IMG/VR virus record: IMGVR_UViG_3300020190_000032
Location: 1-64,000 of that record
DNA: 64,000 bases
Direction: 5' to 3' (one strand)
Origin: a virus
The notes under the pieces were generated by a model. It was not told the origin of the DNA. It worked only from the letters and a program-made list of their open reading frames with translations, and did no database searches. Below are positions 1,685 through 56,430 of this stretch, in pieces. Position numbers and translations under genes: made by a program. Within the stretch, counting starts at the first letter, position 1; each line of letters opens with the position of its first letter.

Positions 1685-1795
1685 GGTGGATTAATATAAT
1701 AATGTACCATTTTAACAATATTTTTAGGAAAACTATAGGTTAACGAAGAGAGAAAGTAATAAACTGGGAATACTAGGTGAGATTTAAGGTGTATT

Positions 1796-2200
1796 GTGGC
1801 TGTATTAGATGTAAGTAAGGGGTGGGTTGCGGGAGATGTTGAGAGAATTTTAATTGCGATTGGTGTATGGGTGAGTCCTTATACGATTACTGAGGCGACT
1901 GTTTGTTGTAATCAATTAGGTGCTAATAGTCCGACGTTAGTTGCGAAGGTAAGGGGATTATTAGGGGAGTTTGATGTTGCTGTTGCGAAGCAGAAGGAGG
2001 CGAATGTTGGGCAGGATACGGGTCGTGTACTTCGTAAAGCGGATGTTTTGGAGTGGGATACGGAGAATAGTGGGACACCATATGATGGTGCATTAAGAGA
2101 GAGGGCAAGAATTGTGAATGATTTAACGACAATTTTTGGATCCTGCCCTATTTTAATGCAGAAGGGTACGGATTCAGTTGTTGCTCTTTATCGATCATGA
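1796..2200 (+). CDS. Putative virion protein, possibly head-tail adaptor
   Basis: 134-aa ORF with LRKADVLEWD motif; preceded by late-type motif GGAATACTA at 1767-1775. Confidence 0.5.
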   Translation: MAVLDVSKGWVAGDVERILIAIGVWVSPYTITEATVCCNQLGANSPTLVAKVRGLLGEFDVAVAKQKEANVGQDTGRVLRKADVLEWDTENSGTPYDGALRERARIVNDLTTIFGSCPILMQKGTDSVVALYRS

Positions 2201-2379
2201 CTAAACACCCTGAAGTTAATGGATCTCTAGGCGAATTGATTGAATTTGTTGAACGTCAGGAGACAGTTGACGTTTGGTGTAAGGGATGCGAGATGTTTCG
2301 TAAGGCAAATAGTGCTTATGCGAAATATTTAAAGGGTGAGATCAGCGAATGTAGATTTTGCAGGGAAGACAATGTGTGA
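2197..2379 (+). CDS. Small zinc-finger-like protein
   Basis: CKGC...CRFC; ATGA overlap with upstream gene. Confidence 0.55.
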   Translation: MTKHPEVNGSLGELIEFVERQETVDVWCKGCEMFRKANSAYAKYLKGEISECRFCREDNV

Positions 2380-2491
2380 AATGTTGACTGAGGAGGACTT
2401 AAGGGGATTGATGGAGAGGGTTGAGGATCTTAAGATGAGTGAATTATTTGAGGAGCCTTGTCGTTTTATGGATGACGAGAAAGAAGAATGA
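2372..2491 (+). CDS. Small acidic hypothetical protein (39 aa, not in ORF track)
   Basis: MCEMLTEEDLRGLMERVEDLKMSELFEEPCRFMDDEKEE; overlaps previous stop. Confidence 0.5.
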   Translation: MCEMLTEEDLRGLMERVEDLKMSELFEEPCRFMDDEKEE

Positions 2492-2576
2492 CGTAAATAA
2501 GTTAATAGTTCTTTAAGAATTGAGGTAAACTGTATGAGTCCGAAAGGACTTGTACTTTTTGGTTTTTGTTTATCTC

Positions 2577-3656
2577 ATGACTGCTACTATTGCTCGTCAG
2601 CAACCAGTAAGTCAATGGGAGTCATTTTGTAACTGGGTTACGAGTACTTCAAATCGTCTTTATGTGGGATGGTTTGGGGCTTTAATGATTCCTTGCTTGT
2701 TGGCTGCGACCACTTGCTTTATCCTTGCGTTCGTTGCTGCCCCTCCGGTAGACATCGATGGCATTCGTGAGCCCGTTGCTGGTTCGTTGCTTTATGGCAA
2801 CAATATTATCAGTGGTGCTATTGTACCCAGTAGCAATGCTATTGGTTTACATTTTTATCCAATTTGGGAAGCCTCGACGTTAGAAGAGTGGCTTTATAAT
2901 GGTGGTCCATATCAATTGGTTGTATTTCATTTTCTGATTGGTGTTTTTGCGTATGCTGGTCGGGAATGGGAGCTTAGTTACCGATTGGGTATGCGTCCTT
3001 GGATTTTTGTTGCCTATCTCGCACCCGTTGCTGCTGCTGCTGCAGTGTTCCTTGTGTATCCATTTGGGCAGGGTTCCTTCTCTGATGGTATGCCTCTTGG
3101 CATTTCAGGAACATTTAATTTCATGCTTGTTTTCCAGGCGGAACATAATATCCTCATGCACCCCTTCCATATGCTTGGGGTGGCTGGTGTATTTGGGGGT
3201 TCTTTGTTCTCTGCTATGCATGGATCTTTGGTCACAAGTAGTCTTGTTCGGGAAACGAGTGAGGAAGTAAGTCAAAATTATGGTTATAAGTTTGGCCAAG
3301 AGGAAGAAACCTACAACATTGTTGCAGCACATGGCTACTTCGGACGACTTATTTTCCAGTACGCATCCTTTAACAATAGCCGTAGCCTTCATTTTTTTCT
3401 GGCTGCTTGGCCTGTTATTGGTATTTGGTTCACTAGTCTTGGCGTTGCTACGATGGCCTTTAATCTTAATGGGTTTAATTTTAATCAATCTATTATTGAT
3501 GATCAAGGCCGTGTTATCAACACTTGGGCTGATGTCCTCAACAGAGCAAACTTGGGATTTGAAGTCATGCATGAACGCAATGCACATAACTTCCCCCTCG
3601 ACCTCGCTGCCGTTGATGCAACGAATATTGCTCTTATAGCGCCGAGCGTTGGCTGA
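2577..3656 (+). CDS. psbA: Photosystem II D1 protein
   Basis: [52 protein letters not shown]; TyrZ and Mn ligands intact; Glu at position 130; no intron; start MTATIARQ at 2577. Confidence 0.99.
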
Positions 3657-3687
3657 TTGACTTTAGGATAACAGCAAGCTTATGATG

Positions 3688-3712
3688 GAGGGGTCCTCAC
3701 CCCTCTTTTTTT
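3688..3712 (+). terminator. Intrinsic terminator after psbA
   Basis: GAGGGG-TCCTCA-CCCCTC followed by T7. Confidence 0.75.
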
Positions 3713-4048: not shown

Positions 4049-4071
4049 CATCTTCTCAATCAACAATAAGT

Positions 4072-4270
4072 AGTCATTGATACTCATCGTTGAAGATTCA
4101 AGGAGGCGTGTGATGACGGTGCGTTTATCGTCATCGCATAGCTCTCCTGTTGATGTCCATGCAAGGCATGCGGGATTGGGGTCTTCGGGCTGATGCATGA
4201 GTCCTTCGGTTGATGCCCCACGTTAGGACATGACCACAGGCTCGCAAGGTTTCCTTTGGGATCATTTCCA
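4072..4270 (+). ncRNA. Candidate structured non-coding RNA of unknown family
   Basis: About 350-nt gap without a convincing ORF; long hairpin 4101-4148 whose G-U pairs favour the plus strand; multi-stem domain 4153-4231; TTGACA at 4045-4050. Confidence 0.5.
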
Positions 4271-7267: not shown

Positions 7268-7271
7268 GACA

Positions 7272-7376
7272 CGTTCATTCGCTGTTTTTGAATAGCGAAC
7301 GGAAGTAAGCCGACTTTTACTCGTATTCTTGATAAACGCTATTTATCAAGAATCCTGATAGCCGACTGAAGGAACG
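7272..7376 (+). promoter_or_regulatory. Glutamine riboswitch (glnA / Downstream-peptide class) with enlarged P3
   Basis: P1 CGTTC(7272-76)/GAACG(7372-76), P2 TTCGCTGTT/AATAGCGAA, junction CGGAAGTAAG and CTGAAG; lies directly before a YRG-motif DUF4278-type gene, the established context for this class. Confidence 0.8.
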
Positions 7377-7406
7377 CTCTTTAACCCTCGTTAAGGAGAT
7401 TCTGTT

Positions 7407-7839: not shown

Positions 7840-7907
7840 GGGCACTTCCGGGAATCGAACCCAGCATTCTAGGCTGTCTGCCTAACGTGTTCCTACACCA
7901 AAGCGCC
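7840..7907 (-). tRNA. Non-canonical tRNA-like RNA (nominal anticodon GAC)
   Basis: Minus strand: GGCGCTT TG GTGT-AGGA-ACAC G TTAGG-CAGACAG-CCTAG AATG CTGGG-TTCGATT-CCCGG AAGTGCC C; all four stems pair, canonical T-loop, but 4-nt D-loop, A at position 33 and no encoded CCA. Confidence 0.65.
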
Positions 7908-8647: not shown

Positions 8648-8696
8648 AAGCCTATTTTACCGTTGTTGGCAATCTAGCCTAGGATTATTCTCTGGC

Positions 8697-9760: not shown

Positions 9761-9792
9761 GAGTTGGTATACTATGGCGCTTGATTTCAGAT

Positions 9793-11337: not shown

Positions 11338-11452
11338 CGTCTACGGGGCAGGAATGGTGTAGACGACGAAACGACCAATCGTCATAAGCATTCTTGCACC
11401 TGCTATATGGTTCCACCTATGGCACCCTAGTGAGCAGGAATTTAAGCAGAAA

Positions 11453-12355: not shown

Positions 12356-12455
12356 AAGTAAAAATTAAGTAGGGTTCCATTTTGGCAACCTACAGGAGAG
12401 GGGTGGGTCCCCCCGATTTTGTCGTTTCGGCCGGATTCATTCCGGATTTTTATCC

Positions 12456-13114: not shown

Positions 13115-13138
13115 GGGGGTCGAAAGACCCCCTTTTTT
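13115..13138 (+). terminator. Intrinsic terminator
   Basis: GGGGGTC-GAAA-GACCCCC followed by T6. Confidence 0.9.
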
Positions 13139-13172
13139 GTTGGCAGACTAATCTAGCCTGTGCTTTGATCCT

Positions 13173-21784: not shown

Positions 21785-21815
21785 TAGGCACACTAGTTGA
21801 GAAAAATCCGGTCGG

Positions 21816-22244: not shown

Positions 22245-22516
22245 GTAACACAAGTGGCAAGACTTTACTGGACCTAGTAAATGAGTCCGCTCAGGCCAAT
22301 CGTTTAAACACGGTTGAAAATGCTTTAGCCGGCGGCGGATTAGGGCAAAAGAATTTCAATGCAACCTGGCGCGGTTTTGAGCTTAACGGGCGCCCTACGG
22401 TCAAATACAAAGGATCCCTTTACAATGTAAACGGAGACGGCTTCACGGGGCTCCCAATGAATTCTAGCGTGACTTTAAGAGTCGGGAAGAATACGCTGTC
22501 TGCTTCCTGGCGATAA
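22241..22516 (+). CDS. Putative small structural protein
   Basis: Coupled ORF; WRGFELNGRPTVKYKG resembles WMGYNSANKPTVKKNG of the next gene. Confidence 0.55.
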   Translation: MSNTSGKTLLDLVNESAQANRLNTVENALAGGGLGQKNFNATWRGFELNGRPTVKYKGSLYNVNGDGFTGLPMNSSVTLRVGKNTLSASWR

Positions 22517-25500: not shown

Positions 25501-25535
25501 ACGAGCGGTATCCTAATGGCAGATTGGCTTTATGA

Positions 25536-31790: not shown

Positions 31791-31822
31791 GGAGGGAATA
31801 CTATTTTGACTTAGGATTCGCC

Positions 31823-33832: not shown

Positions 33833-33893
33833 ACGCCTTAACAATAGGTATCCTACGTCGCACTAAACAAGGAGCAGTGATTGCTCTTTTTAT

Positions 33894-34622: not shown

Positions 34623-34627
34623 AGCGG

Positions 34628-34649
34628 AAGCCCCGAAAGGGGCTTTTTT
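34628..34649 (+). terminator. Intrinsic terminator
   Basis: AAGCCCC-GAAA-GGGGCTT followed by a T run. Confidence 0.85.
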
Positions 34650-34803
34650 ATTGGGAAGAATAAATATTTTTGGAACTATATGATAGAAAGCACCCGGTTT
34701 TGGCTGGCCGAGATGGTTGGGCAGGCAGGGTGTTCCGATGTTGGGGCGTGAGGCCCTAAGCAACGTTTCACCTTTCCTTGTTCACATCTAAAGGAGTCTT
34801 AAA

Positions 34804-35706: not shown

Positions 35707-35734
35707 TCTTGATAGACTGGTAAGTGTGGGGAAT

Positions 35735-35758
35735 GAGGGGCTTCGGCCCCTCTTTTTT
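35735..35758 (+). terminator. Intrinsic terminator
   Basis: GAGGGGC-TTCG-GCCCCTC followed by T6. Confidence 0.9.
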
Positions 35759-35838
35759 GCCTTTTAGGAAACATACTTTAGAACCACCAGCGCTTGTTCC
35801 TGATCTGCGCGTTGGTTTTTCCGTCGTTTTTATTAATT

Positions 35839-36189
35839 ATGGCACGTCGTTCTACTGGTATTTTCCCCCGCGAAAAATTTGATCTTGACGCAAATCTGGC
35901 TGTTACCACCAGCGATGCTAATCTGGGTGTGACCCTGAAGTACATCAAGACCATCCGCGTGATTCTCGTTAATAGCGCAATCACAGGCAACGCTACCGTC
36001 ACCTTCAACATTGGCGGCCGCGATGTTGTATTTGGTGCTAATGATCTGGATCTGAATGGTGTTGGTATTGCTCACGTCCGTGGCGCCCTGTGCGACGCTG
36101 ACAACCTGGTGAAGTACACCATTGCTGCTGGCACCGGCACCGCTACTGTTGGCGGCGCTTTCCTCGACGTGGTCGAGAACGTCGGCTGA
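35839..36189 (+). CDS. Putative capsid decoration/cement protein; start MARRSTG
   Basis: Follows the capsid gene with the same high-expression codon bias; beta-rich. Confidence 0.65.
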   Translation: MARRSTGIFPREKFDLDANLAVTTSDANLGVTLKYIKTIRVILVNSAITGNATVTFNIGGRDVVFGANDLDLNGVGIAHVRGALCDADNLVKYTIAAGTGTATVGGAFLDVVENVG

Positions 36190-36210
36190 TTTTTCCTCAA
36201 ACGGAATAAT

Positions 36211-36236
36211 AAGGGTGACTTTTGTCGCCCTTTTTT
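36211..36236 (+). terminator. Hairpin / probable terminator
   Basis: AAGGGTGAC-TTTT-GTCGCCCTT followed by a T run. Confidence 0.6.
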
Positions 36237-36242
36237 ATTGCC

Positions 36243-36482
36243 ATGCATTTACCCAAACTGCCTACCATCTTTACAAAAGACGGGGAACAACGTAAGGTTT
36301 ATCACACTGTTGAAGCCCGTGAATTATCTGCTGCTGGTTGGGTAGAGGTTGCCGCCCAGAAACCTGCTGACGCAGAAGTTACAAAACCATCAGAAGAGAA
36401 GGAGACAGTAGAGGAGAAGCCAAAAGCAGTCAAGCCTAAAACTGTGGCACTCAAAGAGACTGAAATCGAGGAGTTTAAGTGA
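36243..36482 (+). CDS. Hypothetical protein
   Basis: ARELSAAGW motif with a Lys/Glu-rich tail, as often seen after capsid genes. Confidence 0.6.
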   Translation: MHLPKLPTIFTKDGEQRKVYHTVEARELSAAGWVEVAAQKPADAEVTKPSEEKETVEEKPKAVKPKTVALKETEIEEFK

Positions 36483-36661
36483 ACGAGCCCGAATATTTAA
36501 CAGGCCCGAGATATATTGAAGGCGTTAATTTAGACGCCGATATTATTGCGTCTCAGCCTGTTATTCATAAAAGGCAAGTAACTGATCCCGTGAACGATGG
36601 CAGTCTTGGTAAGCCTGCATACGCTCCGGGATCCACGAACAAAGATGGATCACCTTTTTAG
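36479..36661 (+). CDS. Hypothetical protein
   Basis: SD GAGGAG; GTGA overlap. Confidence 0.55.
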   Translation: MNEPEYLTGPRYIEGVNLDADIIASQPVIHKRQVTDPVNDGSLGKPAYAPGSTNKDGSPF

Positions 36662-36663
36662 TC

Positions 36664-36792
36664 ATGCCATTTAAATCGGCAAAACAAAAAAGATTTTTAT
36701 ATGCTTTTGAGCCAGAAGTGGCTAAAAAGTTTCAACGTGAAGAAGATAAAGTAAAGGCAAAGCGGAAGACTAAGAAAAAGGGGAAGAAGTAA
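36664..36792 (+). CDS. Small basic protein (MPFKSAKQKRFLYA..., not in ORF track)
   Basis: MPFKSxKQ...PEVAKKF pattern; Lys-rich tail. Confidence 0.65.
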   Translation: MPFKSAKQKRFLYAFEPEVAKKFQREEDKVKAKRKTKKKGKK

Positions 36793-36944
36793 TGGCTTTA
36801 CCGCTATCTACGGCCAAGCAAGTATCGCGGAAGAAGTCTTCCTGTAAGGTCATTAGTGAGTATTCGTCTAAAGCTTCACCTAAAAGGACTAAGCCTTTTA
36901 ATGGTGCTACTGATCGCTTTCGGCCTGCCAATAGGAAGAAGTAA
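36792..36944 (+). CDS. Small basic protein (not in ORF track)
   Basis: TAATG coupling at both ends. Confidence 0.55.
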   Translation: MALPLSTAKQVSRKKSSCKVISEYSSKASPKRTKPFNGATDRFRPANRKK

Positions 36945-37243
36945 TGGCACAGAAGAAAAGATCTACCGCCGATTTTTACGCAAAAAATCCTGAGGCATAT
37001 AAAAAGAAACTCGCCTACGACAAAAAACGTAACTCGAGCCCAGATCGCAAGGAATACCGGGCTGAACTGGCTCGTGAGCGACGTGCTAGAGGGATCATGG
37101 GCAAGGGCGGAAAAGATGTCAGTCACGCTGCTGGAGGCGGGTTTAAACTTGAGGAACCGAGCAAAAACCGGGCTAGAAACGGACATGGCAACAATGGCAG
37201 ACTTGCGCCGGGCAAGGGTAGCAGGAAATCCACCAAGAAGTAA
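36944..37243 (+). CDS. Basic protein with degenerate HNH-like motif
   Basis: GKDVSH...EEPSKNRARNG. Confidence 0.6.
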   Translation: MAQKKRSTADFYAKNPEAYKKKLAYDKKRNSSPDRKEYRAELARERRARGIMGKGGKDVSHAAGGGFKLEEPSKNRARNGHGNNGRLAPGKGSRKSTKK

Positions 37244-37277
37244 AGGGGCGGAATACTAGTTCAGCTCTTAAACGGAA

Positions 37278-38807
37278 ATGCCGATTCCGGCCAATCGTGC
37301 GAAGATACAGCTTGCGCGAGGCAATTACAACAATCTACTTGCCAATGTAGGTGAGTTTGCCGAAGGCGAGCTTTCTTATGCAAAAGATGAAAATCTTTTA
37401 TATATTAAAGAAGAAGGTCAATTAATCCGCCTCGAGTATGTTACTCGGGCCGATCTTGATCAGGCTGTAGAAGATTCTATTGATCTTGAGGTATATGGTG
37501 GCGATGGTCTTTTAACCGTTAATGGTGGCGAAGGATCTTCCCCTACCACTACGTTATCTGTTGATGAAGTCTGGTTAAGAGATAAGGTTGGGATTACTGA
37601 TTCAAAGGAACCTGCTGGATTTGTCGATAAGACAACGACGGTTATTGCCTATCGCCCTGTTGAGCAGCAATTTTGGCTTTATCCTACGGGAGCATCTGCG
37701 GCTGTATGGTGTCAAGGAGTAAAGCATACTTTTACGACATACAAGTCGGTTGCGGAACCAACGACAAGCGGTATTTATTATATTTATCTTGACAGTAGCG
37801 CTAATTTACAAATTAAATCAACTGAATTTAATTACAAACTAGACACTCCCGTTTGCCAGATTTACTGGAACGAGACGCTGGGTGCTCCACAATTGCTTGT
37901 TGATCACAGGCATGGAATTGCGATGAATTGGGCAACCCAGGAATTCCTGGAGTTAGCCACCAGTGCTGCTGTTAAGACAGGATTTACTATTTCTGGTATT
38001 ACCAATAATCCAAATGGTAATACCGACAGTCATGCAAAGTTTGCACTGACGGGTGGGACGGCACTGTTCCAAGACGTAAAGATTGAAGTTGATCATAGCG
38101 CAACACCTGCTCCGAATGTTGCGTCAAATTTATTTCAGCAGATATTAAATCCAGTAGCAAAGTTACCTGTTTTTCATCAAGATGGATCGGAATGGAAGTA
38201 TTCTACGCCTTCTGATTATGCGTTTGTTGTTGAAACGGGAGTTCCTGTTTACAATAACTTTAATGTAACTTGGCAGAAACAGCAAGTAGGAAATGGTAAA
38301 TACTTTATTTCTTATATTGCAGCGACTGGCAATACTGAATATCCCGCTGTAGCATTTTCTGGCCAGCAGCAATATAACGATTTAAGCGCTGCGGAAGCTG
38401 CTGTCTTTGGTGATTTAGATTTAAATGGTCTTGAGGTAATACCGATCAGAATATTATATAAAATTATTTATAAATACAGCACAGCTTATACGAGTACAGT
38501 TAAAGTTACAATTGAAGGATATCAAGACCTTAGATCATCTGGCGTCAACGGAGCAACTGCTGGAGTTACGGATCACGGTAGATTAGGTGGTCTTTTAGAC
38601 GATGACCACAGCCAATATGTTCATGTATCTATTGATAGAGTCATTAGCGCTGATCATAGTCATTCTGGCACAATTGACATTACAAATGAAACTCAAAGTA
38701 CAAGTGCAGAGACTGGTGCCTTGCGGATTGCCGGTGGCGTAGGAATATCCGGTAATCTTAATGTTGCCGGTGATATTGGTGCTACTTTAGACGGCGGAAA
38801 TTTTTGA
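37278..38807 (+). CDS. Fibre-like structural protein
   Basis: KIQLARG...EGELSY N-terminus; DHGRLGGLLDDDHSQY; GALRIAGGVGI; ends LDGGNF. Confidence 0.75.
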   Translation: MPIPANRAKIQLARGNYNNLLANVGEFAEGELSYAKDENLLYIKEEGQLIRLEYVTRADLDQAVEDSIDLEVYGGDGLLTVNGGEGSSPTTTLSVDEVWLRDKVGITDSKEPAGFVDKTTTVIAYRPVEQQFWLYPTGASAAVWCQGVKHTFTTYKSVAEPTTSGIYYIYLDSSANLQIKSTEFNYKLDTPVCQIYWNETLGAPQLLVDHRHGIAMNWATQEFLELATSAAVKTGFTISGITNNPNGNTDSHAKFALTGGTALFQDVKIEVDHSATPAPNVASNLFQQILNPVAKLPVFHQDGSEWKYSTPSDYAFVVETGVPVYNNFNVTWQKQQVGNGKYFISYIAATGNTEYPAVAFSGQQQYNDLSAAEAAVFGDLDLNGLEVIPIRILYKIIYKYSTAYTSTVKVTIEGYQDLRSSGVNGATAGVTDHGRLGGLLDDDHSQYVHVSIDRVISADHSHSGTIDITNETQSTSAETGALRIAGGVGISGNLNVAGDIGATLDGGNF

Positions 38808-38844
38808 TAGTAGGAATGATATAATGACTGCTTAAGTTTTTAAA

Positions 38845-39996
38845 ATGGCTAGTGCCATCAGGATCAAGCGGAGAGACGCCAGTGGTGCCGCTGGAGCACC
38901 CGCAAATCTGCTTCATGCCGAGTTGGCATTTAACGAAGCTGATAAAACACTTTATTATGGTTTTGGGTCTGGGGTCGGGAGCAACTCCAGTTCAATTATT
39001 TCAATAGCCGGCGAGGGTGCGTTTTTTTCCAAGAGTATTGTTCAGCAGGCTAATAAAGTTTTAGCAGGCCCTGCAAGTGGTGCAGATGCTGCGCCGACGT
39101 TTAGGACGCTTGTTGCTGATGATATCCCGTCGCTGACAGCATCAAAAATCAGCGATTTTGACACTCAGGTCAGAACAAATCGACTTGATCAGATGGCGGC
39201 TCCGACCGCCTCTGTTGCGTTTAACGCCCAAAAGATCACAGGTCTTGCGGATCCTACTGACGATCAAGATGCTGCAACAAAAGCATACGTTGATGCTGCC
39301 CGCAGTGGTCTTGACGTAAAAGCAAGTGTCCGTGCTGCTACTATTGGCAATATCACTCTGTCTGGCACGCAGACAATTGACGGCGTTGCATTAGTTGCTG
39401 GCAACCGAGTCCTCGTCAAAAACCAATCTATTGCTGCCGACAACGGCATTTACGTTGTCGCATCGGGTTCTTGGTCTCGTTCCGATGATGCTAACAGTGA
39501 TGTCGAGGTTACACCCGGCATGTTTACCTTCGTAGAAGAAGGTACTGCAAATGCTGATTCCGGCTGGGTTCTTACTAATAATGCGACCGTAAATCTTGGT
39601 CTTACCGGTCTAGCTTTTTCCCAGTTCTCCGGTGCTGGACAAATTACTGCTGGTGCCGGTCTTACCAAGACTGGCAATACTATTGATGTCGGCGGTACTA
39701 CCAACCGAATCACAGTAAATGCTGATTCGATCGATATTGCTTCGACTTACGTCGGCCAGAGTTCAATTACAACACTTGGCACCGTAACCAGTGGCACATG
39801 GAACGGTACTACTATTGGTGTTGCCTATGGTGGAACTGGTTTGACTTCCGCAACTAAAGGTTCTGTCCTGGTTGCAAATGCTGCTAATACCTTAAGCGCT
39901 TTGGATGGTGGTGGGGTCAATGATGGATTGCTTTTTTATACCGCAAGTTCAGACACAATCTCCTGGACTAACGAAATCGATGGCGGCACATACTAG
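38845..39996 (+). CDS. Fibre / head-decoration-like structural protein
   Basis: IRIKRR...AELAF; DAATKAYVD; RVLVKNQ...NGIY; ends IDGGTY. Confidence 0.8.
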   Translation: MASAIRIKRRDASGAAGAPANLLHAELAFNEADKTLYYGFGSGVGSNSSSIISIAGEGAFFSKSIVQQANKVLAGPASGADAAPTFRTLVADDIPSLTASKISDFDTQVRTNRLDQMAAPTASVAFNAQKITGLADPTDDQDAATKAYVDAARSGLDVKASVRAATIGNITLSGTQTIDGVALVAGNRVLVKNQSIAADNGIYVVASGSWSRSDDANSDVEVTPGMFTFVEEGTANADSGWVLTNNATVNLGLTGLAFSQFSGAGQITAGAGLTKTGNTIDVGGTTNRITVNADSIDIASTYVGQSSITTLGTVTSGTWNGTTIGVAYGGTGLTSATKGSVLVANAANTLSALDGGGVNDGLLFYTASSDTISWTNEIDGGTY

Positions 39997-40062
39997 GTAG
40001 GAACCCTAGGACGCCATTAGATAATGGCTCTATAGGGCTTTATAGCCGCCGGAGAATGCCAC

Positions 40063-40968
40063 ATGGCAGCGCCAGTTGTTAAGCTAAAGCGGTCTAGCGT
40101 ACCAGGAAAAATACCGCTTACTACGGACATTGATCTGGGCGAAATTGCCATAAATACGTTTGATGGTAAAGCATATTTTAAAAAGGATAACGGCACTGAG
40201 TCTATCGTTGAGATTGGTACTGGTGCCGGTGGTGGCGGTGGAGGCAGTTACACCGCTCCTGCAATTTTAACTTTATATAATAAGAATAATTCTGGAGGTC
40301 CGGCAACATTTGACGGAACAGAAACAAGATTTCAGTTAAGGGATTCTCCCGGAAATATTGTTACCGTCAGCAGTGCTCTTCTGGCTGCAATTAGTGTAGA
40401 TGGTGTTATCCAAAAACCGAATAGTGGTATTCCTGTTGGTAGCTTTGAGGGATTTTATGTTACCACAAACGCAACATTAGGATATGATATTGTTTTTGGC
40501 TCTGCTCCTTCTAGCACCTCTACATTTTTCGGTGTTTTAAGTGGTACGTTTGCTGCAACAAGCGGAACGACCGGGATAACAAAGCTTGATAGCCTTACCA
40601 GTCAATTCAACGGTACTGCAACATCATTCACTTTAAAAGTAAACAATGTTGCGTATGCACCAGAATATGCAAATGCAGTCTTAATTATTGTTGGTGGCGT
40701 TGTTCAGATTCCAACTTCTGCTTACACAATATCTGGTTCAACGATTGCGTTTACGTCAGCTCCACCAACTGGAACCAGTTTCTATGGAATCGATTTCAAA
40801 ATAGGTGATAGTGGTGGCAGTGCATCACTGATCACAGAAAATAAAATTGTAATCGATCAGAATGTAACAATTGGAGTTGGGTATAATGGGTTAAGCGCTG
40901 GCCCGATTGAGGTTGCGGCAACCTATAGCGTTGAAGTTCCCTCCGGTGGCACCTGGGTGATTCTCTGA
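40063..40968 (+). CDS. Fibre-like structural protein
   Basis: VKLKRSSVPGKIP...LGEIAINTFDGK; two FxGxxTxF repeats; C-terminal SAGPIEV...WVIL. Confidence 0.75.
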   Translation: MAAPVVKLKRSSVPGKIPLTTDIDLGEIAINTFDGKAYFKKDNGTESIVEIGTGAGGGGGGSYTAPAILTLYNKNNSGGPATFDGTETRFQLRDSPGNIVTVSSALLAAISVDGVIQKPNSGIPVGSFEGFYVTTNATLGYDIVFGSAPSSTSTFFGVLSGTFAATSGTTGITKLDSLTSQFNGTATSFTLKVNNVAYAPEYANAVLIIVGGVVQIPTSAYTISGSTIAFTSAPPTGTSFYGIDFKIGDSGGSASLITENKIVIDQNVTIGVGYNGLSAGPIEVAATYSVEVPSGGTWVIL

Positions 40969-41630
40969 TGACTTACGGATCTGTCAAAATTGATTCTATT
41001 GTTACGAGCACTCAGACCGTAACGGTAGACACCCTGAAGAGCGTTATAGACGCGGCTTTAGCTAAGTCCGGTGGGACGATGACTGGGGCGATTGTATTTG
41101 CCGCCGGACAGACTACGCCTGCAGTTGCTGCAATTACAAGTGGCTCGATTAGTGGGATCAATGATCTTGCTATTGCCGATGGCGGAACTGGAGCTAGTTC
41201 CGCTTCTGCCGCAAGAACAAATTTAGGCTTGGTGATCAACACTGATGTTCAAGCATATGATGCTGATACAGCTAAAACAGATATTGTTCAGACGTTTACG
41301 GCTGGGCAACGCGGCGAAGTAACAACTGTGACGAGTTCTGCCGGTGCTTTGGCGATTAATTTTGATGACAGTAATAATTTTATTTGCACATTAAGTCAAA
41401 ATATTACTTCCGTGACATTTACGAATGCTACGGCCGGTCAGTCTGGTTCTATTTTTATCAAGCAGCCGGCGTCAGGTGGTCCTTACACGGTTGGCGGTTG
41501 GGGCAGTGGGTTTAAGTTTTCTGCCGGTACGGCGCCAACAATTACAGCTACAAGTTCGAAAACAGATAGAATTGATTATGTGGTGATTGGTGCATCCGAA
41601 GTGCAAGTTGTTTGGACGGGTAACTACTGA
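40968..41630 (+). CDS. Fibre-like structural protein
   Basis: GGTMTG and LAIADGGTGASSASAARTNLG motifs. Confidence 0.75.
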   Translation: MTYGSVKIDSIVTSTQTVTVDTLKSVIDAALAKSGGTMTGAIVFAAGQTTPAVAAITSGSISGINDLAIADGGTGASSASAARTNLGLVINTDVQAYDADTAKTDIVQTFTAGQRGEVTTVTSSAGALAINFDDSNNFICTLSQNITSVTFTNATAGQSGSIFIKQPASGGPYTVGGWGSGFKFSAGTAPTITATSSKTDRIDYVVIGASEVQVVWTGNY

Positions 41631-44413
41631 TGTCTATTGTTGGAAGCAACGTACTTGCTGGCGCAAGTGGTCAATCGAGAGGCATTAAAATCGAAAGAAG
41701 CCTTCGTTTCAATAGTATAGACAGTGCCTTCTTGTCCCGCCAACCATCAACGGCGGGCAATAGGAAGATCTTTACATTATCTTTTTGGTGGAAAAATACC
41801 GTCAGGTCAACAGGGCTTCAGCGACCTATTTTTGTCGCTCAGGAGGCTTCGCCGCGAAAGGAATATTGGACAAAGTTGGTAACAACCGACGGTAACATTC
41901 TTTCCTTTGCTTCACGATCTGGCGGAGCAGATATTTTTAGCCTAGTTACCACACAAGTCTTTCGTGACCCTTCAGCTTGGTATCATATTGTTTTACAAGC
42001 AGACACTACGCAGGCAACCGCATCAAACCGCCTACGGCTTTATGTCAACGGCACGCAGGTTACTACGTTCAGTACAGCAACCTATCCATCTCCAAGTCTT
42101 GATATTGCTTACATCAACGAGTCTGGGGCGTCGCATTTCCTAGGCAGGTATTTAGACAATACATACGAGTATCTTGATTCCTATCTCGCCGACATCTGGT
42201 TCGTCGACTCACAAGCGTTGACCCCATCAGCATTTGGGGAGTTCGACACCAACAACGTCTGGCAGCCCAAGGCATACTCCGGCAGCTACTCAGGCAACTC
42301 CTTTCACCTCGACTTTGCCGACAACAGTGCAGCAACCGCCGCCGCATTAGGGAAGGACACTTCTGGCAACGGGCATAACTGGACGCCGAACAACCTATCG
42401 GTCACGGCTGGTGCAGGAAACGACAGCCTCGTAGACTCCCCCACTAATTACGGCACCGATACAGGCGCTGGTGGGGAGGTGAGGGGAAATTATGCGACGT
42501 TGAATCCGTTGGCTAAGGGCACAACCCAAGTGCTTGCCAATGGAAATCTCGATGTACTAGCACCTTCTGGTCACGGAACGACAAATGCAACGATTGCGGT
42601 TACCGCTGGACTCAAGGCATACATGGAGTTCACCCGCACGGGCGGCACAGAGGGTGGAGGGTGGGGATTTACTAGCAACTTAACCCCTTACTCTGGCTAT
42701 CCAGGAAACGCGTCGAATCTCTGGTGGGTGTATGACAATGGCGGTAACTTTGTGTATGAAAACAATGGCACGACAACGCAATACGCATCAAAAACAACCA
42801 ATGGGCAAATTCTTCAGCTTGCTATTGACTACGATGCTGGTAAAGCATGGATTGGCATAAATAATACCTGGTTCACTGCAGCCAACGCCACTACTGGTAA
42901 TCCATCAACAGGCGCTAACCCTACCCTTACGTTTTCAACCACCCTGCCACTCTTCCCTTTGGTTGAAGCTGCGGGCTGGACAGTTGCTTGCAACTTCGGC
43001 CAACGCCCCTTCGCCTACACCGCCCCCAGCGGCTTCAAGGCACTCTGCACCGCCAACCTGCCGACGCCGACGATTGCCAAAGGCTCGGACTATATGGACG
43101 TAAAGCTCTACACCGGCAATGGCTCAACGCAGACCATTAGTGGGCTGAACTTCTCGCCTGACTTTGTTTGGTTGAAATCTAGAAGTTCTGGTTCCTATAG
43201 CCACAATATTTATGACATTGTGCGTGGAGCGACAAAAATTATTTATAGCGACAGCACTTCAGCAGAAAATACAGATGCTAGTGGCCTGACTGCTTTCAAC
43301 TCTGATGGTTTTAGCCTTGGAAGCACCGCTGCTACTAACGCAAGTAGTACAACTTATGTCGGCTGGTGCTGGGACGCCGGCGCCAACAGCAGCAAGACCT
43401 ACACCGTCACCGTTGTCAGCGATAAGTTTCACATCGACGGCAAACAGCAACCCACGCTGAACCTAGAAGAAGGCAGCACATACACCTTTGATCTATCTGC
43501 TGCGTCTAACTCTGGGCATCCATTCCGGCTATCAGAATCAGCCAATGGACCTACGCAATACACAACAGGGGTGACGACTAGCGGTACTGCCGGCAATGCT
43601 GGCGCTACTTTGACAATCGCCGTTGCATCAGGCGCACCCACGCTGTACTACTTCTGCACCAACCACAGTGGAATGGGCGGGCAGATCAATACGAACACCA
43701 CCGCAGGCGCGTCCAACTTCGCAGGCAGCATCACTTCTCAGGTGAGGGCTAATGCTAGTGCGGGGTTTTCGGTGGTTACTTATACGGGGACGGGTTCTGC
43801 TGGCACAGTGGGGCATGGGTTGGGTGTGTCCCCCGAGTTCATCATTGTCAAAAGTAGAAGCAGTACAGCGGACTGGCACATTTGGCATCGCAGCTTGAAC
43901 AATGGAGTCAGCGCTGGGCAGTATGTACTCATCTTTACAACTGCATCCACTTTTGGCCCAAACGCTACTTGGTGGAATAACACGACGCCATCTTCTACTG
44001 TTTTTAGTGTCGGTGGTGGTAGCGGAACAAGTGGTAGCAGTTCCACCTACGTCGCCTACTGCTTCGCCCCAGTAGCCGGGTACTCTTCTTTTGGCAGCTA
44101 CACCGGCAACGGCAGCGCGAATGGTCCCTTTGTTTATACCGGGTTTAGGCCGAGGTGGATTCTGTTTAAAAACAGTTCCGTGGGCGTAGAAGATTGGTGG
44201 CTGCACGACACAGCGAGAAATACTTACAACGTCATGACAAGCCTATTGGTTCCAAACTCTAGTAACGCAGAAGCCACAAGCGCTGGCCACAGTGTTGATG
44301 CGTTATCCAATGGCTTCAAGATCAGGACTACGGCGCAAGGCGTTAATGGTTTGCACACCATTGTGTACGCCGCCTTCGCCGAGCACCCCTTCGCCTACGC
44401 TCGCGCTAGGTGA
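41630..44413 (+). CDS. Receptor-binding fibre with ConA/LamG-like, SPRY-like and cupredoxin-like domains
   Basis: RSLRFNS, FRDPSAWYHIV, NFGQRPFAY, repeated YTGNG...PDFVWLKSR units, HPF...YFCTNHSGMG. Confidence 0.8.
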   Translation: MSIVGSNVLAGASGQSRGIKIERSLRFNSIDSAFLSRQPSTAGNRKIFTLSFWWKNTVRSTGLQRPIFVAQEASPRKEYWTKLVTTDGNILSFASRSGGADIFSLVTTQVFRDPSAWYHIVLQADTTQATASNRLRLYVNGTQVTTFSTATYPSPSLDIAYINESGASHFLGRYLDNTYEYLDSYLADIWFVDSQALTPSAFGEFDTNNVWQPKAYSGSYSGNSFHLDFADNSAATAAALGKDTSGNGHNWTPNNLSVTAGAGNDSLVDSPTNYGTDTGAGGEVRGNYATLNPLAKGTTQVLANGNLDVLAPSGHGTTNATIAVTAGLKAYMEFTRTGGTEGGGWGFTSNLTPYSGYPGNASNLWWVYDNGGNFVYENNGTTTQYASKTTNGQILQLAIDYDAGKAWIGINNTWFTAANATTGNPSTGANPTLTFSTTLPLFPLVEAAGWTVACNFGQRPFAYTAPSGFKALCTANLPTPTIAKGSDYMDVKLYTGNGSTQTISGLNFSPDFVWLKSRSSGSYSHNIYDIVRGATKIIYSDSTSAENTDASGLTAFNSDGFSLGSTAATNASSTTYVGWCWDAGANSSKTYTVTVVSDKFHIDGKQQPTLNLEEGSTYTFDLSAASNSGHPFRLSESANGPTQYTTGVTTSGTAGNAGATLTIAVASGAPTLYYFCTNHSGMGGQINTNTTAGASNFAGSITSQVRANASAGFSVVTYTGTGSAGTVGHGLGVSPEFIIVKSRSSTADWHIWHRSLNNGVSAGQYVLIFTTASTFGPNATWWNNTTPSSTVFSVGGGSGTSGSSSTYVAYCFAPVAGYSSFGSYTGNGSANGPFVYTGFRPRWILFKNSSVGVEDWWLHDTARNTYNVMTSLLVPNSSNAEATSAGHSVDALSNGFKIRTTAQGVNGLHTIVYAAFAEHPFAYARAR

Positions 44414-44466
44414 CGTAAATACATTAAACTTTTACTTGGCACCCTAAATCGACTACCATTTCAATC

Positions 44467-45018: not shown

Positions 45019-45056
45019 ACCAATGGAAGCCTATGCCTGTAGACTCACCAGGGTCC

Positions 45057-45403: not shown

Positions 45404-45447
45404 TTCGATAAATTTGTTGGCACACTAGGGCAACCGATAGATTTATC

Positions 45448-45971: not shown

Positions 45972-46000
45972 TGGTACACTAGTTCGCATTATTTTTACCA

Positions 46001-50659: not shown

Positions 50660-50788
50660 AGGTTGTCTTAAGCAACCTTTGGGGTTTCCTCAGGCTAGGT
50701 TTGGGGTATCCTTAGGCAACCTTTAGGGGTTTCCAAAGACCACCCTACCTTTAATATATATATATAAGATTATTTTAGATTTTTTAAT
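50660..50788. repeat. Iteron-like repeats plus AT-rich tract (candidate origin or divergent operator)
   Basis: CTTAAGCAACCTTTGGGGTTTCC (50667-50689), CTTAGGCAACCTTTAGGGGTTTCC (50711-50734), partial TTTGGGGTATCC, and an alternating AT run at 50754-50766. Confidence 0.6.
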
Positions 50789-51793: not shown

Positions 51794-51866
51794 TATTGAC
51801 GACATAGCCAAAGAGCTTGCGCTGTTTTTTAATGGCGTTATCGTCAAAACTGAAGAAATCTTTTAG
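51786..51866 (+). CDS. Possible peptide resembling the extreme C-terminus of cyanobacterial DnaX (start uncertain)
   Basis: IDDIAKELALFFNGVIV; SD-like AGGAGAGG at 51778-51785; only ATT codons nearby, or the ATG at 51654. Confidence 0.4.
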   Translation: MIDIDDIAKELALFFNGVIVKTEEIF

Positions 51867-51922
51867 GGGGCTTGACTGCCCCCTTTCTATTGATTATCCT
51901 CTACCTGAATCTTTTTCTTTCC

Positions 51923-52717
51923 ATGGCCGCCGACTGCGACACCGTCAAATTTTGGCTTGATGCTGCGGGTCGCTATCCAGTTCTAAAAACCGATCAAGTT
52001 TTATTGCTTGCTAAGCAGATCCAATCAAATTCTCCCGAGAGTCTTGCGTACAAAAAGGCATTACAAAAACTTGTACGACATAATCTTAAATTGATCCCAA
52101 CGGTTGCTCGTCGGGCAATGAGAAATAAATATGGCAAAAACTTTGGTGGCAGTTACACGGAAGATGTATTTCAGTGTGGCGTTGTTGGATTAATGCGAGC
52201 TGCTCAAAAATTCGATCCAACTCGTGGTTATGCTTTTAGCACTTACGCGGTTGGATGGATTTACCAAGCCATGCAACGTGATCTTTATAACAATATGTCC
52301 CCAATCCGTGTCCCTGAAAATACAATTAGAGAATATTACACAATATTTGTTAAGTCAAATGACAACCTTGCCCTTTCTGACGTAGACCCTAAAAAGATGA
52401 TTCGATACATGGATACGGCAAGTGCAATTCGCTGCAGATCATTGGATACCTATAGGCCCTCAGGGCACGCTGAAGATGGGCTTACAGAAGGCATTGAAGT
52501 CGCGTCCGATGACAGTCCTAAGGGTATTGAGCCTATTGACAAAATCATCGACATGTCTGACTGTTCAGACCTAGCCAAGCAAATGGTCTTGGATTACTAC
52601 CAGGATAATTTGACGATGCTTGAAATTGGTGAAAAAAATGGAGTTTCAAGGGGTCGGGTTTCCAAAATGATTCAAGCATGCCTCAAGGATCTCCGCGAGA
52701 AGTTATCGGCGGTATAA
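51923..52717 (+). CDS. RNA polymerase sigma-70 family factor (RpoD/group-2-like)
   Basis: Region 1.2 AGRYPVL, region 2 LVRHNLKLI and GLMRAAQKFDPTRGYAFSTYAVGWIYQAM, region 4 TMLEIGEKNGVSRGRV. Confidence 0.93.
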   Translation: MAADCDTVKFWLDAAGRYPVLKTDQVLLLAKQIQSNSPESLAYKKALQKLVRHNLKLIPTVARRAMRNKYGKNFGGSYTEDVFQCGVVGLMRAAQKFDPTRGYAFSTYAVGWIYQAMQRDLYNNMSPIRVPENTIREYYTIFVKSNDNLALSDVDPKKMIRYMDTASAIRCRSLDTYRPSGHAEDGLTEGIEVASDDSPKGIEPIDKIIDMSDCSDLAKQMVLDYYQDNLTMLEIGEKNGVSRGRVSKMIQACLKDLREKLSAV

Positions 52718-54335: not shown

Positions 54336-54694
54336 TGGACTACCCGGAAATCATACTGCCTTTGCGTTTAATGTCAAAGGCCAGGCCGAGAGTAACCAGC
54401 ATGGGCACTTATATGCCAAAGCCTTATCAACTTTGGCGTAAAGAATGTGCTGATTTACTAAAAGAAGCTTGGCAAAGGCCTCCATTAGATCATCCTATAG
54501 CGGTAGAGATTGACTGTTATGGGACTGCTCGCGGTGATATTGATAATTATATGGGCGCTCTTTTTGATACTGCGAACGGAATAGTTTGGACAGACGACAG
54601 AGCTTCAATTATTCAACGGGCGACAATCAGTTATTACAAGCGACCGATACTTGAGAGCTGCTGGAAGCTTAGGGTCTCAGACCTGCTAGAATAG
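54335..54694 (+). CDS. rusA: RusA-like Holliday junction resolvase
   Basis: SKARPR and GDIDNY...D...WTDD motifs. Confidence 0.85.
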   Translation: MDYPEIILPLRLMSKARPRVTSMGTYMPKPYQLWRKECADLLKEAWQRPPLDHPIAVEIDCYGTARGDIDNYMGALFDTANGIVWTDDRASIIQRATISYYKRPILESCWKLRVSDLLE

Positions 54695-54711
54695 TCAGAG
54701 TTATCAAATTT

Positions 54712-55596
54712 ATGACAGACTTCAAGGCGGAGGTTTGTTATTTTCAGCAAGACGGTGAATATCGTCGCCAAGCCGGTGAAAGCCAGTCGCACCTGAAATC
54801 AATACTGCTTAGTCCAGCCCATTACCAAGCCAACAGGAAACGTCGCTTTAGGGCGTCTTCTGTCATGACCATTGGCACTGCTACACATTGCAGGGCCTTA
54901 GAGGGCGACCAAACATTTGAAAACAGTTTTGTCCTGAAGCCTGAAAATGTAAAATATACTACAAAAGAAGGCCGAGAGTGGCGTGACTCACAAGGGAATA
55001 AAACCATTCTCGTAAATGACGGGATTGACCATCAATGGGATTGTGTAATGGGTATGACCGAGGCCCTGAGAAAGATGTCTTGGTTCGATCCGTCTCAGAA
55101 AGATTACAGAAAATACAACGAAGTATCTTTCTACTGGGAAGAGATGGGCATTCCTTGTAAGGCAAGGCTTGATAGGATTCTTGTGACTGATGACGAAGTT
55201 CATGTTATCGACTTAAAGACCACGGATTCAATTTCTGTGGAAAAGTTTCAGAGTAAAGCAGTTGACCTTGGCTACGATTTTCAGGCGGGCTGGTATTCAC
55301 ATGCCGCTGAATTGGTGTACGAAAAGCCGGTCAGATTTACTTTTGTTGCAATTGAACGCAATGAGCCATGGTCTGTTGGCATTTTTGAGGTGCCACAAGA
55401 CATGATGCAAGAAGCTAGGCGTAAAAACGAAAAAGCACTCAAGACCTTAAGGAAATGTTTGGATACTGGGGAGTGGCCAGGCATCCTTCCAGTCCCTAAA
55501 ATCCTTGAGTACCCGCGCTGGTACACACCAATTTCCGATACAGTTAACCTAGAACCTGCCAACAGCAATAGCAATGACTTCGTCCCACTTTTCTGA
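54712..55596 (+). CDS. RecE/exonuclease VIII-like PD-(D/E)XK nuclease
   Basis: SQSHLK, GTATH, CKARLDR, IDLKTT, YDFQAGWY. Confidence 0.88.
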   Translation: MTDFKAEVCYFQQDGEYRRQAGESQSHLKSILLSPAHYQANRKRRFRASSVMTIGTATHCRALEGDQTFENSFVLKPENVKYTTKEGREWRDSQGNKTILVNDGIDHQWDCVMGMTEALRKMSWFDPSQKDYRKYNEVSFYWEEMGIPCKARLDRILVTDDEVHVIDLKTTDSISVEKFQSKAVDLGYDFQAGWYSHAAELVYEKPVRFTFVAIERNEPWSVGIFEVPQDMMQEARRKNEKALKTLRKCLDTGEWPGILPVPKILEYPRWYTPISDTVNLEPANSNSNDFVPLF

Positions 55597-56239
55597 TTGC
55601 AAGCTCGTTAGCATTACTCCCAATGCGGAAGAACAACTTGTGTTCTTTGCTCGGGTTAGTAATCCGAAGGGCCAAGACAACAAGGATACGGCTCCTAAAT
55701 TAATTAAATACTTAATCACTCATAAGCATTGGTCGCCATTTCAATTGGCAGACATGACCATTGAGATTAATACAACAAGAGCAATCTCTGCGCAGATTTT
55801 GCGACATAGGGCCTTTACATTCCAAGAATTTTCTCAGCGATATGCTGACGTTGGACTTCTTGGGGCACCAATTGTGCCGCACCTTAGAGCGCAAGATTTT
55901 AAAAACCGTCAAAACAGTACGGATGACTTAGCGGAAAGACTTGGAGCGGAAAAGCTCAGCTCTTTCTATAGAAGAATTTCTAACTTATTTGAGGAATCGG
56001 AGCATCTTTACGGTGAGATGGTTTCTGTCGGCGTGGCAAAAGAATGCGCAAGGAGTATTTTACCCTTGGCATCGCGAACTCGCTTGTATATGCATGGTTC
56101 AGTGCGTGATTGGATACATTATCTACAGGTTCGCAGTGGAGTTGAAACTCAACTTGAACATCGGGAGATTGCTTTAGCAATTCTTGAGATCTTTAAGCAG
56201 CAATTACCAAACACCTATGAGGCCGCATTCGGATCCTGA
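55574..56239 (+). CDS. thyX: Flavin-dependent thymidylate synthase
   Basis: HWSPF, QILRHRAFTFQEFSQRY, KECARSILP, TQLEHR. Confidence 0.97.
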   Translation: MTSSHFSDCKLVSITPNAEEQLVFFARVSNPKGQDNKDTAPKLIKYLITHKHWSPFQLADMTIEINTTRAISAQILRHRAFTFQEFSQRYADVGLLGAPIVPHLRAQDFKNRQNSTDDLAERLGAEKLSSFYRRISNLFEESEHLYGEMVSVGVAKECARSILPLASRTRLYMHGSVRDWIHYLQVRSGVETQLEHREIALAILEIFKQQLPNTYEAAFGS

Positions 56240-56241
56240 AA

Positions 56242-56430
56242 ATGTTAAAACCCAAAGTTTATCCGGTTCTGCTGCAGGCAATTGAAGAAGGAGTTCTTTA
56301 TGGTTATAACAGGGCTCATAAGCATGTTGAAAAACCAGATGATATTCTTCTTGTAGATACCATTGTTAAATGCACCATGGAAGCGGTGCTGGAGTGGTTT
56401 GAGATTGAGGATAGCAATATGGCATCCTAA
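56242..56430 (+). CDS. Hypothetical protein
   Basis: AIEEGVLYGYNRAHKH...EWFE. Confidence 0.65.
   Translation: MLKPKVYPVLLQAIEEGVLYGYNRAHKHVEKPDDILLVDTIVKCTMEAVLEWFEIEDSNMAS

Follow-up and report, generated by a model that had tools for sequence, protein, structure and literature searches.

A −35-less GGHANNCT(A) box before late genes of an S-CBS2-like phage, a candidate promoter for a phage-encoded SigF-like sigma factor

Many of the particle, lysis and packaging genes in the virus genome held as IMG/VR record IMGVR_UViG_3300020190_000032 are preceded at a short distance by a nine-nucleotide box, GGHANNCTA. The stretch analyzed here, hereafter the window, comprises the first 64 kb (64,000 nucleotides) of this record, which is 84,315 bp long and rated complete; positions are those of the window unless the genome is named, and distances run from the end of the box to the start codon. 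The sequence evidence leads us to assign a probability of roughly 0.6 to the reading that the box is a promoter lacking a −35 element and read by the host core RNA polymerase together with a 208-aa sigma factor of the phage itself, the product of 58753..59379 (+), referred to below as sigma 2. The main box is designated class A (GGHANNCTA), while class B has T at −12 and G at −6. The window has a G+C content of 43.8%, and 83 of the 97 genes obtained by heuristic calling lie on the + strand.

The 21 copies of the box listed in the initial annotation, as well as the two near-matches at 2524 and 61862, were all recovered, position and letters alike. The commonest exact 9-mer in the window was GGAATACTA, with three copies. 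The total of the loose pattern GGHANNMTA on both strands of the window was only in weak excess (51 vs. 39.4 ± 5.3 after shuffling, with 1 of 100 shuffles reaching 51), and its copies were divided into 39 on the + strand and 12 on the − strand; the signal resides in strand and position, not in this total. The stricter GGHANNCTA occurred 32 times forward and 4 times in reverse in the 84,315-bp record, the same pattern read backwards giving 17 and 16. Order-3 Markov simulation yielded 12.3 ± 3.8 forward copies, with a maximum of 25 in 200 runs. The reverse-strand depletion was not significant for this single genome (4 vs. 7.9 ± 2.8 in the same model). Variants ending in ATA showed no enrichment as a group (16 copies forward and 12 in reverse), and any single one of them is less certain. 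When 12,187 gapped words were scanned without bias over 97 upstream 50-mers, fragments of the box ranked first, GCA-N2-CTA being seen 9 times vs. 0.61 expected (P = 1.4 × 10−8). Chance or base composition as the origin of the box was ruled out by the Markov simulations, the reversed-pattern counts and the word scan. Classic sigma-70 promoters were also considered for the late genes and rejected, the consensus scans giving about as many matches as shuffled sequence (37 vs. 36.1, 40 vs. 34.3, and 31 vs. 33.3).

With respect to position, 16 of the 32 forward copies ended 15–27 nt 5′ of a + strand gene start, a zone that makes up 1.28% of the genome and in which 0.41 copies were expected (binomial P = 2.6 × 10−22). 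This count uses starts moved to the in-frame ATGs 8697, 9793, and 45057 and an added open reading frame (ORF) at 61050; with unaltered heuristic gene calls it was 12 of 32. A test free of gene calls gave a start codon opening at least 40 codons, 17–25 nt downstream, for 19/32 forward copies and 0/4 reverse ones. The listed copies had been said to end mostly 18–23 nt before the start codon, and this was so for 16 of the 21 (13 with unaltered starts), the remaining five ending 31–123 nt away (63 nt for the copy at 12384, 38 for 33847, 123 for 34672, 31 for 36203, and 54 for 40000). The description of late transcription as proceeding gene by gene was borne out for roughly half of the late genes, and the rest overlap or abut the preceding gene.

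The absence of a shared −35 element, also claimed at the outset, was confirmed: in an alignment of the 22 best window sites the largest upstream column reached 0.41 bit, and in a pooled set of 154 unique sites (79 related loci contributing alongside this phage, S-CBS2, and P-SS2) every column from −50 to −3 held 0.15 bit or less. The pooled sites preferred H-A-N-M-C-T in the hexamer, with T/A and then A/C at the N positions, and the base preceding GG was G in 9/154. A or C occupied −12 in 19/22 window sites. The fifth and sixth bases past the box were purines in 19/22 and 18/22 window sites and in 103/154 and 111/154 pooled sites, respectively. The promoter of the orthologous gene nrdJ keeps GGNANNCT in 45 of 51 unique relatives, 36 of them as class A or B and 9 more with T or C at the end; the last position is variously A, G or T, and the 8-mer is therefore the core of the box. 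The sequences before psbA (GGTAAACTG) and nrdJ (GGTAGACTG), which had been regarded as near-matches, are not weak copies but form their own GGTANNNTG subclass, with T at −12 and G at −6. The third letter of the box is mostly T when the last is G, and GTA-N2-CTG was enriched in the word scan (7 seen vs. 0.88 expected).

The box was also found in relatives. The gene order of the window is that of the Synechococcus phage S-CBS2, with a looser match to the Prochlorococcus phage P-SS2. The S-CBS2 genome holds 36 forward and 4 reverse copies (control pattern 14 and 12); 22 of the 36 are properly spaced, and they precede genes for structural-annotated proteins, tape measure, endolysin, terS, ribonucleotide reductase, and portal. 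In P-SS2, with 52% G+C, there were 18 forward copies, 12 of them spaced, and 1 reverse copy. A set of 80 IMG/VR loci around sigma 2 (1.27 Mb, G+C 42–61%) gave 299 forward and 35 reverse copies, of which 138 and 1, respectively, were spaced, vs. 20 and 17 for the reversed pattern. The cyanosiphovirus S-CBS3, without a sigma 2 relative, had no copy on either strand, and the first 50 kb of S-CBS4, which also has no such relative, had 3 forward and 6 reverse copies (0 and 1 spaced). Among unique upstream regions of the relatives, class A was present before terS in 18/59, before nrdJ in 30/51, and before portal in 20/40, while the replication genes carried TGnTAnnnT in 12–20 regions each and class A almost never. 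The initial annotation had seen no box before early or replication genes. This agrees with the lack of any forward copy between 45973 and 56421, where the replication module lies, but the regulon is not purely late since nrdJ has the main box in those 30 of 51 relatives. As observations on two of these genes, portal has a leader of about 64 nt past its box with a hairpin conserved among relatives (genome 64757–64829), and the nrdJ gene of marine relatives shows a TATACT-like −10 hexamer 10–15 nt upstream of the class A box, so that the two promoters look tandem.

Sigma 2, the proposed reader of the box, is encoded between terL and the primase gene and comprises domains 2 and 3 followed by a three-helix remnant of domain 4. 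The factor had been described as SigF-like with a degenerate region 4, and both parts of this description were supported. Its best NCBIfam match was cyanobacterial SigF (NF005644), and its region 4 is reduced. Pfam Sigma70_r2 was matched by all 31 aligned members of the family, and with an E threshold of 1 none of them matched the region 4 model of Pfam. Aligned to the FliA profile, the protein is covered through region 4.1, but the match breaks off ahead of the helix-turn-helix, at residue 214 of 254. Domains 2 and 3 can be recognized in the AlphaFold model (mean pLDDT 78.8), as can a disordered linker and, modeled with confidence at the C terminus, three helices (157–170, 174–185, and 193–205). 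The canonical domain 4 of sigma factors has four helices, and one of them is absent from the modeled sigma 2. Structural alignment of domain 2 to 8b3z_D with VIA-align gave Z 14.0 and an rmsd of 1.9 Å over 77 residues. In region 3.0, H and E fall opposite the same residues of SigA, and variability within the family peaks in the C-terminal part, with the last helix. At least 682 relatives of sigma 2 were found in public data, the best 120 being 193–222 aa long; none of 85 pattern matches in genome contigs was confirmed as a prophage or cellular copy. P-SS2 ORF003 and S-CBS2 gp077 belong to the same family (45 and 60% identity, respectively) and likewise follow terL. Within the 28 nt that separate terL from sigma 2 in the window, an extended −10-like element, TGATACACT, stands at 58725..58733 (+), 19 nt before the start of the latter. 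Among 66 unique regions upstream of sigma 2 in relatives, 39 had class B GGTANNNTG, 16 had TGnTAnnnT, and none had class A.

Alternatively, the box might act in RNA, guiding the processing of long late transcripts or their translation from a constant distance to the start codon. The tight spacing, with its mode at 20 nt, would fit such a role, as would the lack of a Shine-Dalgarno sequence in most of the box-preceded genes whose sequences were inspected. Nevertheless, three results point to DNA. The reverse complement of the box was depleted in 64 de-replicated loci (31 vs. 79.3 ± 8.2 simulated, the lowest of 20 runs being 65), the expected outcome of selection against stray antisense promoters. 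Additionally, 24 of 441 unique sites lay within 12 nt past a terminator-like hairpin and T run, vs. 1/441 at a control offset; examples are the tape measure and major head genes, both here and in S-CBS2. A gene behind a terminator requires a new promoter, and a box directly past the terminator leaves no space for a −35 element. Finally, the two most abundant virion genes, those of the major tail and major head proteins, keep the box but at 63 and 123 nt, respectively, with a ribosome site of their own. The box moreover corresponds base for base to mapped promoter −10 regions, including the two bases flipped out by sigma. An action in RNA thus appears highly improbable, and the tight spacing elsewhere would reflect the shortest workable promoter and leader in a packed genome. 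A run search with 33800–43799 listed no matching RNA sequencing run.

If the box is a promoter, its reader has to be chosen among several sigma factors. The second one in the phage, sigma 1 (51924..52717, +), lies just 5′ of ssb, has its true start at ATG 51924, and is RpoS/RpoD-like; it aligns with RpoS from region 1.2 through the end of region 4.2. This rival could take GG as an extended −10 contact, sigma 2 then doing something else. It possesses region 3.0 and the full domain set, and extended −10 promoters of primary-type sigmas need no −35 (as cited in PMC6495340). Moreover, sigma 1 and sigma 2 occurred together in 52 of the 80 related loci, i.e., in every locus long enough; the 28 loci without a sigma 1 match all have less than 8.6 kb upstream of sigma 2, and elsewhere sigma 1 lies about 6.3–9.3 kb upstream. 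GG-type −10 regions, however, are documented for group-3 sigmas (PMC2532724; PMC6495340), which favors sigma 2. So does the lack of a −35, given the incomplete region 4 of sigma 2; sigma 1 keeps the full region 4 helix-turn-helix, yet no −35 is conserved. A or C at −12 is poor for primary-type sigmas, and the predominance of these bases in the window sites likewise favors sigma 2. The better conservation of sigma 2 (41–73% identity among relatives) points in the same direction, sigma 1 (28–50%) being far more variable than the invariant box, and the replication genes adjoining sigma 1 carry TGnTAnnnT-type elements and not the box. Reading by sigma 1 is consequently considered unlikely. A host sigma, either of the SigF/SigJ type or sigma A with a phage activator, could also read the box while the phage sigmas serve other genes, and the resemblance of the box to the host-type J-Box and to the −12 region of SigF promoters (PMC6495340; PMC2532724) is in its favor. 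Against it, group-3 sigmas are rare in marine Prochlorococcus (PMC2784084) and P-SS2 nevertheless keeps the box; no box signal was present in the two cyanosiphoviruses without sigma 2, and the third G of the J-Box is avoided. We consider a host reader very unlikely.

Several observations weigh against the reading of the box as a promoter served by sigma 2 and must be considered. The SigF profile is matched by sigma 2 only at positions 28–197 of 258 and with 87.6 bits, vs. a curated cut-off of 261, so that the protein is SigF-like and not a SigF orthologue. The structural alignments reach residue 208 of sigma 2, at the end of domain 4 of solved sigmas, and some DNA contact may be made by its confidently folded three-helix domain. 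The presence of both sigmas in all 52 sufficiently long loci means that co-occurrence cannot assign the box to one of them. The gap between box and start codon was 20 nt in 42/154 pooled sites and 19–22 nt in 104/154; so tight a link is unusual for promoters and would fit a translation or RNA-processing signal as well. In addition, 9 of the 32 forward copies are intragenic with no start codon in range, which is about the chance level, the counts from related loci are not independent events as these loci share ancestry, and the gene calls, with several start codons, come from our own heuristic. The initial proposal of a −10-only promoter stands in that the box is strand-specific, conserved, depleted in antisense, often placed after a terminator, without a −35, and in register with GG-type −10 regions, and sigma 2 is the likeliest candidate for its reader.

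The motif with its counts, spacing and conservation was observed directly, as was the domain composition of the two sigmas; from these we infer promoter function, transcript starts, reader and timing as follows. GGHANNCT(A) would be the core of an extended −10-type promoter without a −35, numbered by analogy as G−14, G−13, H−12, A−11, N, N, C−8, T−7, and A−6. Transcription would start at a purine 5–6 nt past the box (purines at −1/+1), so that most late genes would have leaders of about 13–18 nt; those of the major head and tail genes would be longer and include a Shine-Dalgarno sequence. Domains 2 and 3 of sigma 2 would read the hexamer and GG, while its domain 4, with three helices, would read no −35. 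Concerning the order of events, host sigma A would make sigma 1, from a canonical −35/−10 promoter, and the early genes; a sigma A-type enzyme, with either host sigma A or sigma 1, would then switch on sigma 2, and sigma 2 would open the class A units, i.e., the particle, lysis and packaging genes. Such a cascade is likely because the sigma 2 gene is headed by a host-like extended −10 element. The sigma 1 gene itself has a sigma-70-type promoter, TTGACT-17-TATCCT, at 51865..51900 (+), whose −35 hexamer forms the loop of a terminator-like hairpin (51865–51884); the same design, TTGACA in a hairpin loop and then CATACT, was observed before sigma 1 in many relatives.

Comparable promoters have been described in cyanobacteria. 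About 93 SigJ-dependent promoters of Nostoc punctiforme share the J-Box GGGaAtacT, in which the near-invariant A and T are taken to be the flipped bases and the G run an extended −10 read by domain 3, with a weak −35 (Gonzalez et al., 2019, PMC6495340). The phage box similarly has a G run immediately 5′ of the hexamer, near-invariant A−11 and T−7, and a weak or absent −35; GGAATACTA contains the exact J-Box hexamer, and the presumed phage reader is, like SigJ, a SigF-related group-3 sigma. It must be noted that the J-Box, as described in that source, has three invariant G and a full-length sigma whereas the phage box has two, a further discrepancy that weighs against the proposed reading; besides, the phage box prefers A after T, its presumed reader has 208 aa and an incomplete region 4, and it serves particle, lysis and packaging genes at 18–23 nt from their start codons. 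SigF of Synechocystis PCC 6803 needs GGTAA at −14 to −10 as its "−12 region," the important bases being G from −15 to −13 and T at both −12 and −7; GGTAA is read only by SigF, which regulates its own gene (Asayama and Imamura, 2008, PMC2532724). The phage box lies in the same register as this GGTAA (G−14, G−13, T−12, A−11 in the latter). For pilA1, however, promoter activity further requires an AG-rich stretch upstream and TAGGC as a −32 element (PMC2532724), and the phage box has no conserved upstream element. Regarding bacteriophages, the late promoters of T4 are recognized by gp55 in concert with gp33 and the sliding clamp gp45 (Geiduschek and Kassavetis, 2010, PMC2988020). Here too, a lone −10-region element without a −35 would be used by a phage sigma-like factor that does not read a −35, many late units have their own promoter, and the sigma 2 of many relatives, though not that of the window, ends in a clamp-binding-like tail, as does gp55 (PMC2988020). 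Sigma 2, in contrast to the minimal gp55, is an ordinary member of the sigma-70 family that has domains 2 and 3 along with part of domain 4; neither gp33 nor a phage clamp was found in the record, and the box sequence is unrelated. The finding would be a new sigma-promoter pair serving a viral strategy already known. We found no published description of the box in the sources covered, to which the S-CBS2 paper (Huang et al., 2012), the S-CRES paper and the supplements, which may bear on this point, did not belong.

The tail just mentioned deserves attention in its own right. In most relatives sigma 2 has 242–244 aa and an invariant R-x-Q-x-S-L-F end (e.g., L048, 10556–10732; L042, 3801–3977; L056, 10556–10732), which tips an extension of about 36 aa. 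Among the 65 sigma 2 proteins of the related loci that were complete and distinct, Q-x-[SC]-L-F formed the C terminus of 27, and 9 others ended in LF. From the bacterial clamp-binding consensus QL[SD]LF this motif differs at one position, as does the working QPDLF of the late activator of phage Mu (PMC12867686). The window's own sigma 2 ends in IRFDV, without the tail, and Q-x-[SDE]-[LM]-F was in no called protein of the 84-kb record. No PF02768 match was obtained in the record (controls matched 11 of 14 genomes), the domain sought being the C-terminal one of beta clamps and not the PCNA/gp45 type. In S-CBS2 (NC_015463, about 57,400–57,570; L012), gp077 stops early at 206 aa and the +1 frame encodes the conserved tail, which ends in QGSLF there; the record therefore carries a frameshift that hides the tail, whether genuine or due to faulty sequencing. 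Folding the tail with two copies of the Synechocystis clamp, a stand-in, gave a score of 0.56 (runs 0.70, 0.56, and 0.52), the best of three controls being 0.00; the runs shared at least 87% of contacts, with a partner pLDDT of at least 47. Out of 157 solved complexes, 116 passed the mark of this test, as did 2 of the 215 mismatched pairs, but scores of 0.60 or below comprise just 18 of the 157 solved complexes and both passing mismatches, so that the support is weak, and the model may remember solved clamp-peptide complexes. A tentative idea, which we hold to be rather doubtful, is that the family represents a fused late-transcription sigma that would read the −35-less box via domains 2 and 3, hold the polymerase flap via the domain 4 stump, and tether the enzyme to the host beta clamp. 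According to the T4 literature, such a fused factor has not been found so far (PMC2988020). If true, the tether would make late transcription depend on DNA replication in the manner of T4. The clade of the window would no longer have the tail, through loss or replacement, and would use the same promoters uncoupled from replication. A replication-coupled late transcription was reported for phage Mu in 2026 (PMC12867686).

The sites of the window, all on the + strand, are given here in order. The class A box GGAATACTA at 1767..1775 lies 20 nt before GTG 1796 (134-aa ORF), with a further copy at 1727–1735. The class B box GGTAAACTG at 2524..2532 is 44 nt before the true psbA start, ATG 2577, and a hairpin at 2532–2555 opens at its last base; the longest ORF there begins at TTG 2550, and the PsbA-like sequence at ATG 2577. 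Class A boxes follow at 8668..8676, 20 nt before ATG 8697, and at 9766..9774, 18 nt before ATG 9793, both starts being re-assigned. The next ones precede ATG 11453 of a virion structural protein by 23 nt (11421..11429), the major tail protein gene at 12456 with a long leader (12384..12392), and the tape measure gene by 22 nt (13142..13150), the latter placed 9 nt past a terminator hairpin (13115–13132) and T run. Class A at 21787..21795 is 20 nt before ATG 21816, and an ATA variant at 22485..22493, within the preceding ORF, is 22 nt before ATG 22516 of a 994-aa protein. Further class A boxes stand 20 nt before ATG 25536 of a 2084-aa virion/fibre protein (25507..25515), 19 nt before GTG 31823 of a fibre with an Mtd_N domain (31795..31803), and 38 nt before the scaffold gene at 33894 (33847..33855). 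Two ATA variants (34654 and 34672; 34654..34680) lie just past a terminator; they end 141 and 123 nt short of the major head gene at 34804, which has its own AAGGAG. Another ATA variant, at 35767..35775, is past the terminator at 35735–35752 and 18 nt before TTG 35794. That at 36203..36211 is doubtful and may be a chance occurrence; a terminator-like hairpin (36211–36232) opens at its last base.

Downstream, class A boxes are located 19 nt before ATG 36792 of a 50-aa ORF (36764..36772) and 19 nt before ATG 37278 of a 509-aa protein (37250..37258), and an ATA variant at 38813..38821 is 23 nt before the head decoration gene at 38845. They are followed by class A boxes 54 nt before the fibre gene at 40063 (40000..40008), 20 nt before ATG 44467 of a fibre-assembly-like gene (44438..44446), 23 nt before the re-assigned ATG 45057 of a 33-aa ORF (45025..45033), 20 nt before ATG 45448 of a 62-aa ORF (45419..45427), and 19 nt before the endolysin gene at 46001 (45973..45981). 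The class A box at 56421..56429, within the preceding ORF, is 21 nt before terS (GTG 56451), and that at 61018..61026, also class A, at the end of the primase gene, is 23 nt before ATG 61050 of a 75-aa ORF missed by the gene caller. The class B box GGTAGACTG at 61862..61870 is 21 nt before nrdJ (61892). Besides the hairpins opening at the last base of a box (2532 and 36211), a promoter-then-hairpin order was seen at 3657–3706; these arrangements suggest that transcripts begun at boxes or promoters abutting hairpins skip the terminator.

Comparison with Pfam and PHROGs named, apart from particle and lysis genes (neck protein, major tail protein, tape measure, several fibres, scaffold, major head, head decoration, and endolysin), psbA, terS, terL, primase, nrdJ, dCTP deaminase, and portal, together with a replication block of DnaB (minus strand), SSB, exonuclease, and ThyX. 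Other elements were also observed. A glutamine riboswitch (Rfam RF01739, 40.5 bits vs. a gathering score of 35) at 7270–7380 (+) is 5′ of a small ORF from ATG 7407. The sequence GGGCAAG(A/C)CCC occurs immediately 5′ of the ATG of three early-looking genes on both strands: 793–806 (+), 650–663 (−), and genome 82025–82038 (−). Two clusters, each of three iteron-like direct repeats GGGGT(A/T)TCC then AG(A/G)C(A/T)ACC, may be origin or operator sites: one, at 50681–50745, adjoins an (AT)n run where the helicase operon and the replication genes diverge, and the other, outside the window at genome 83119–83215, is near the right genome end. ARAGORN gave one tRNA-Val (GAC) within the window, at 7840–7907 (−), and genes for tRNA Arg-TCT, Met-CAT, and Leu-TAA lie outside it, at genome 67462–67691 (+).

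In the P-SS2 genome paper both sigmas are listed, only sigma-70 promoters are predicted (with BPROM) and no target motif is named, while a regulon of its own was guessed for the group-3 sigma (Sullivan et al., 2009, PMC2784084). The box would be the missing target of this annotated type III/group 3 sigma (P-SS2 ORF003, S-CBS2 gp077). Among the known viruses of marine and freshwater picocyanobacteria, siphoviruses of the P-SS2/S-CBS2 type are the principal ones with long tails, and for them the box would give a map of about 25 transcription units per genome, would let late genes be sorted from early ones in uncultured relatives, and would correct start codons. The clamp-binding-like tail in most relatives offers a testable link between replication and late transcription. 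The pair of sigma and promoter is itself testable and, as a short, −35-less, orthogonal promoter, would be of use in cyanobacterial synthetic biology. In this reading, a host-type J-Box/SigF logic would have been taken over by the virus.

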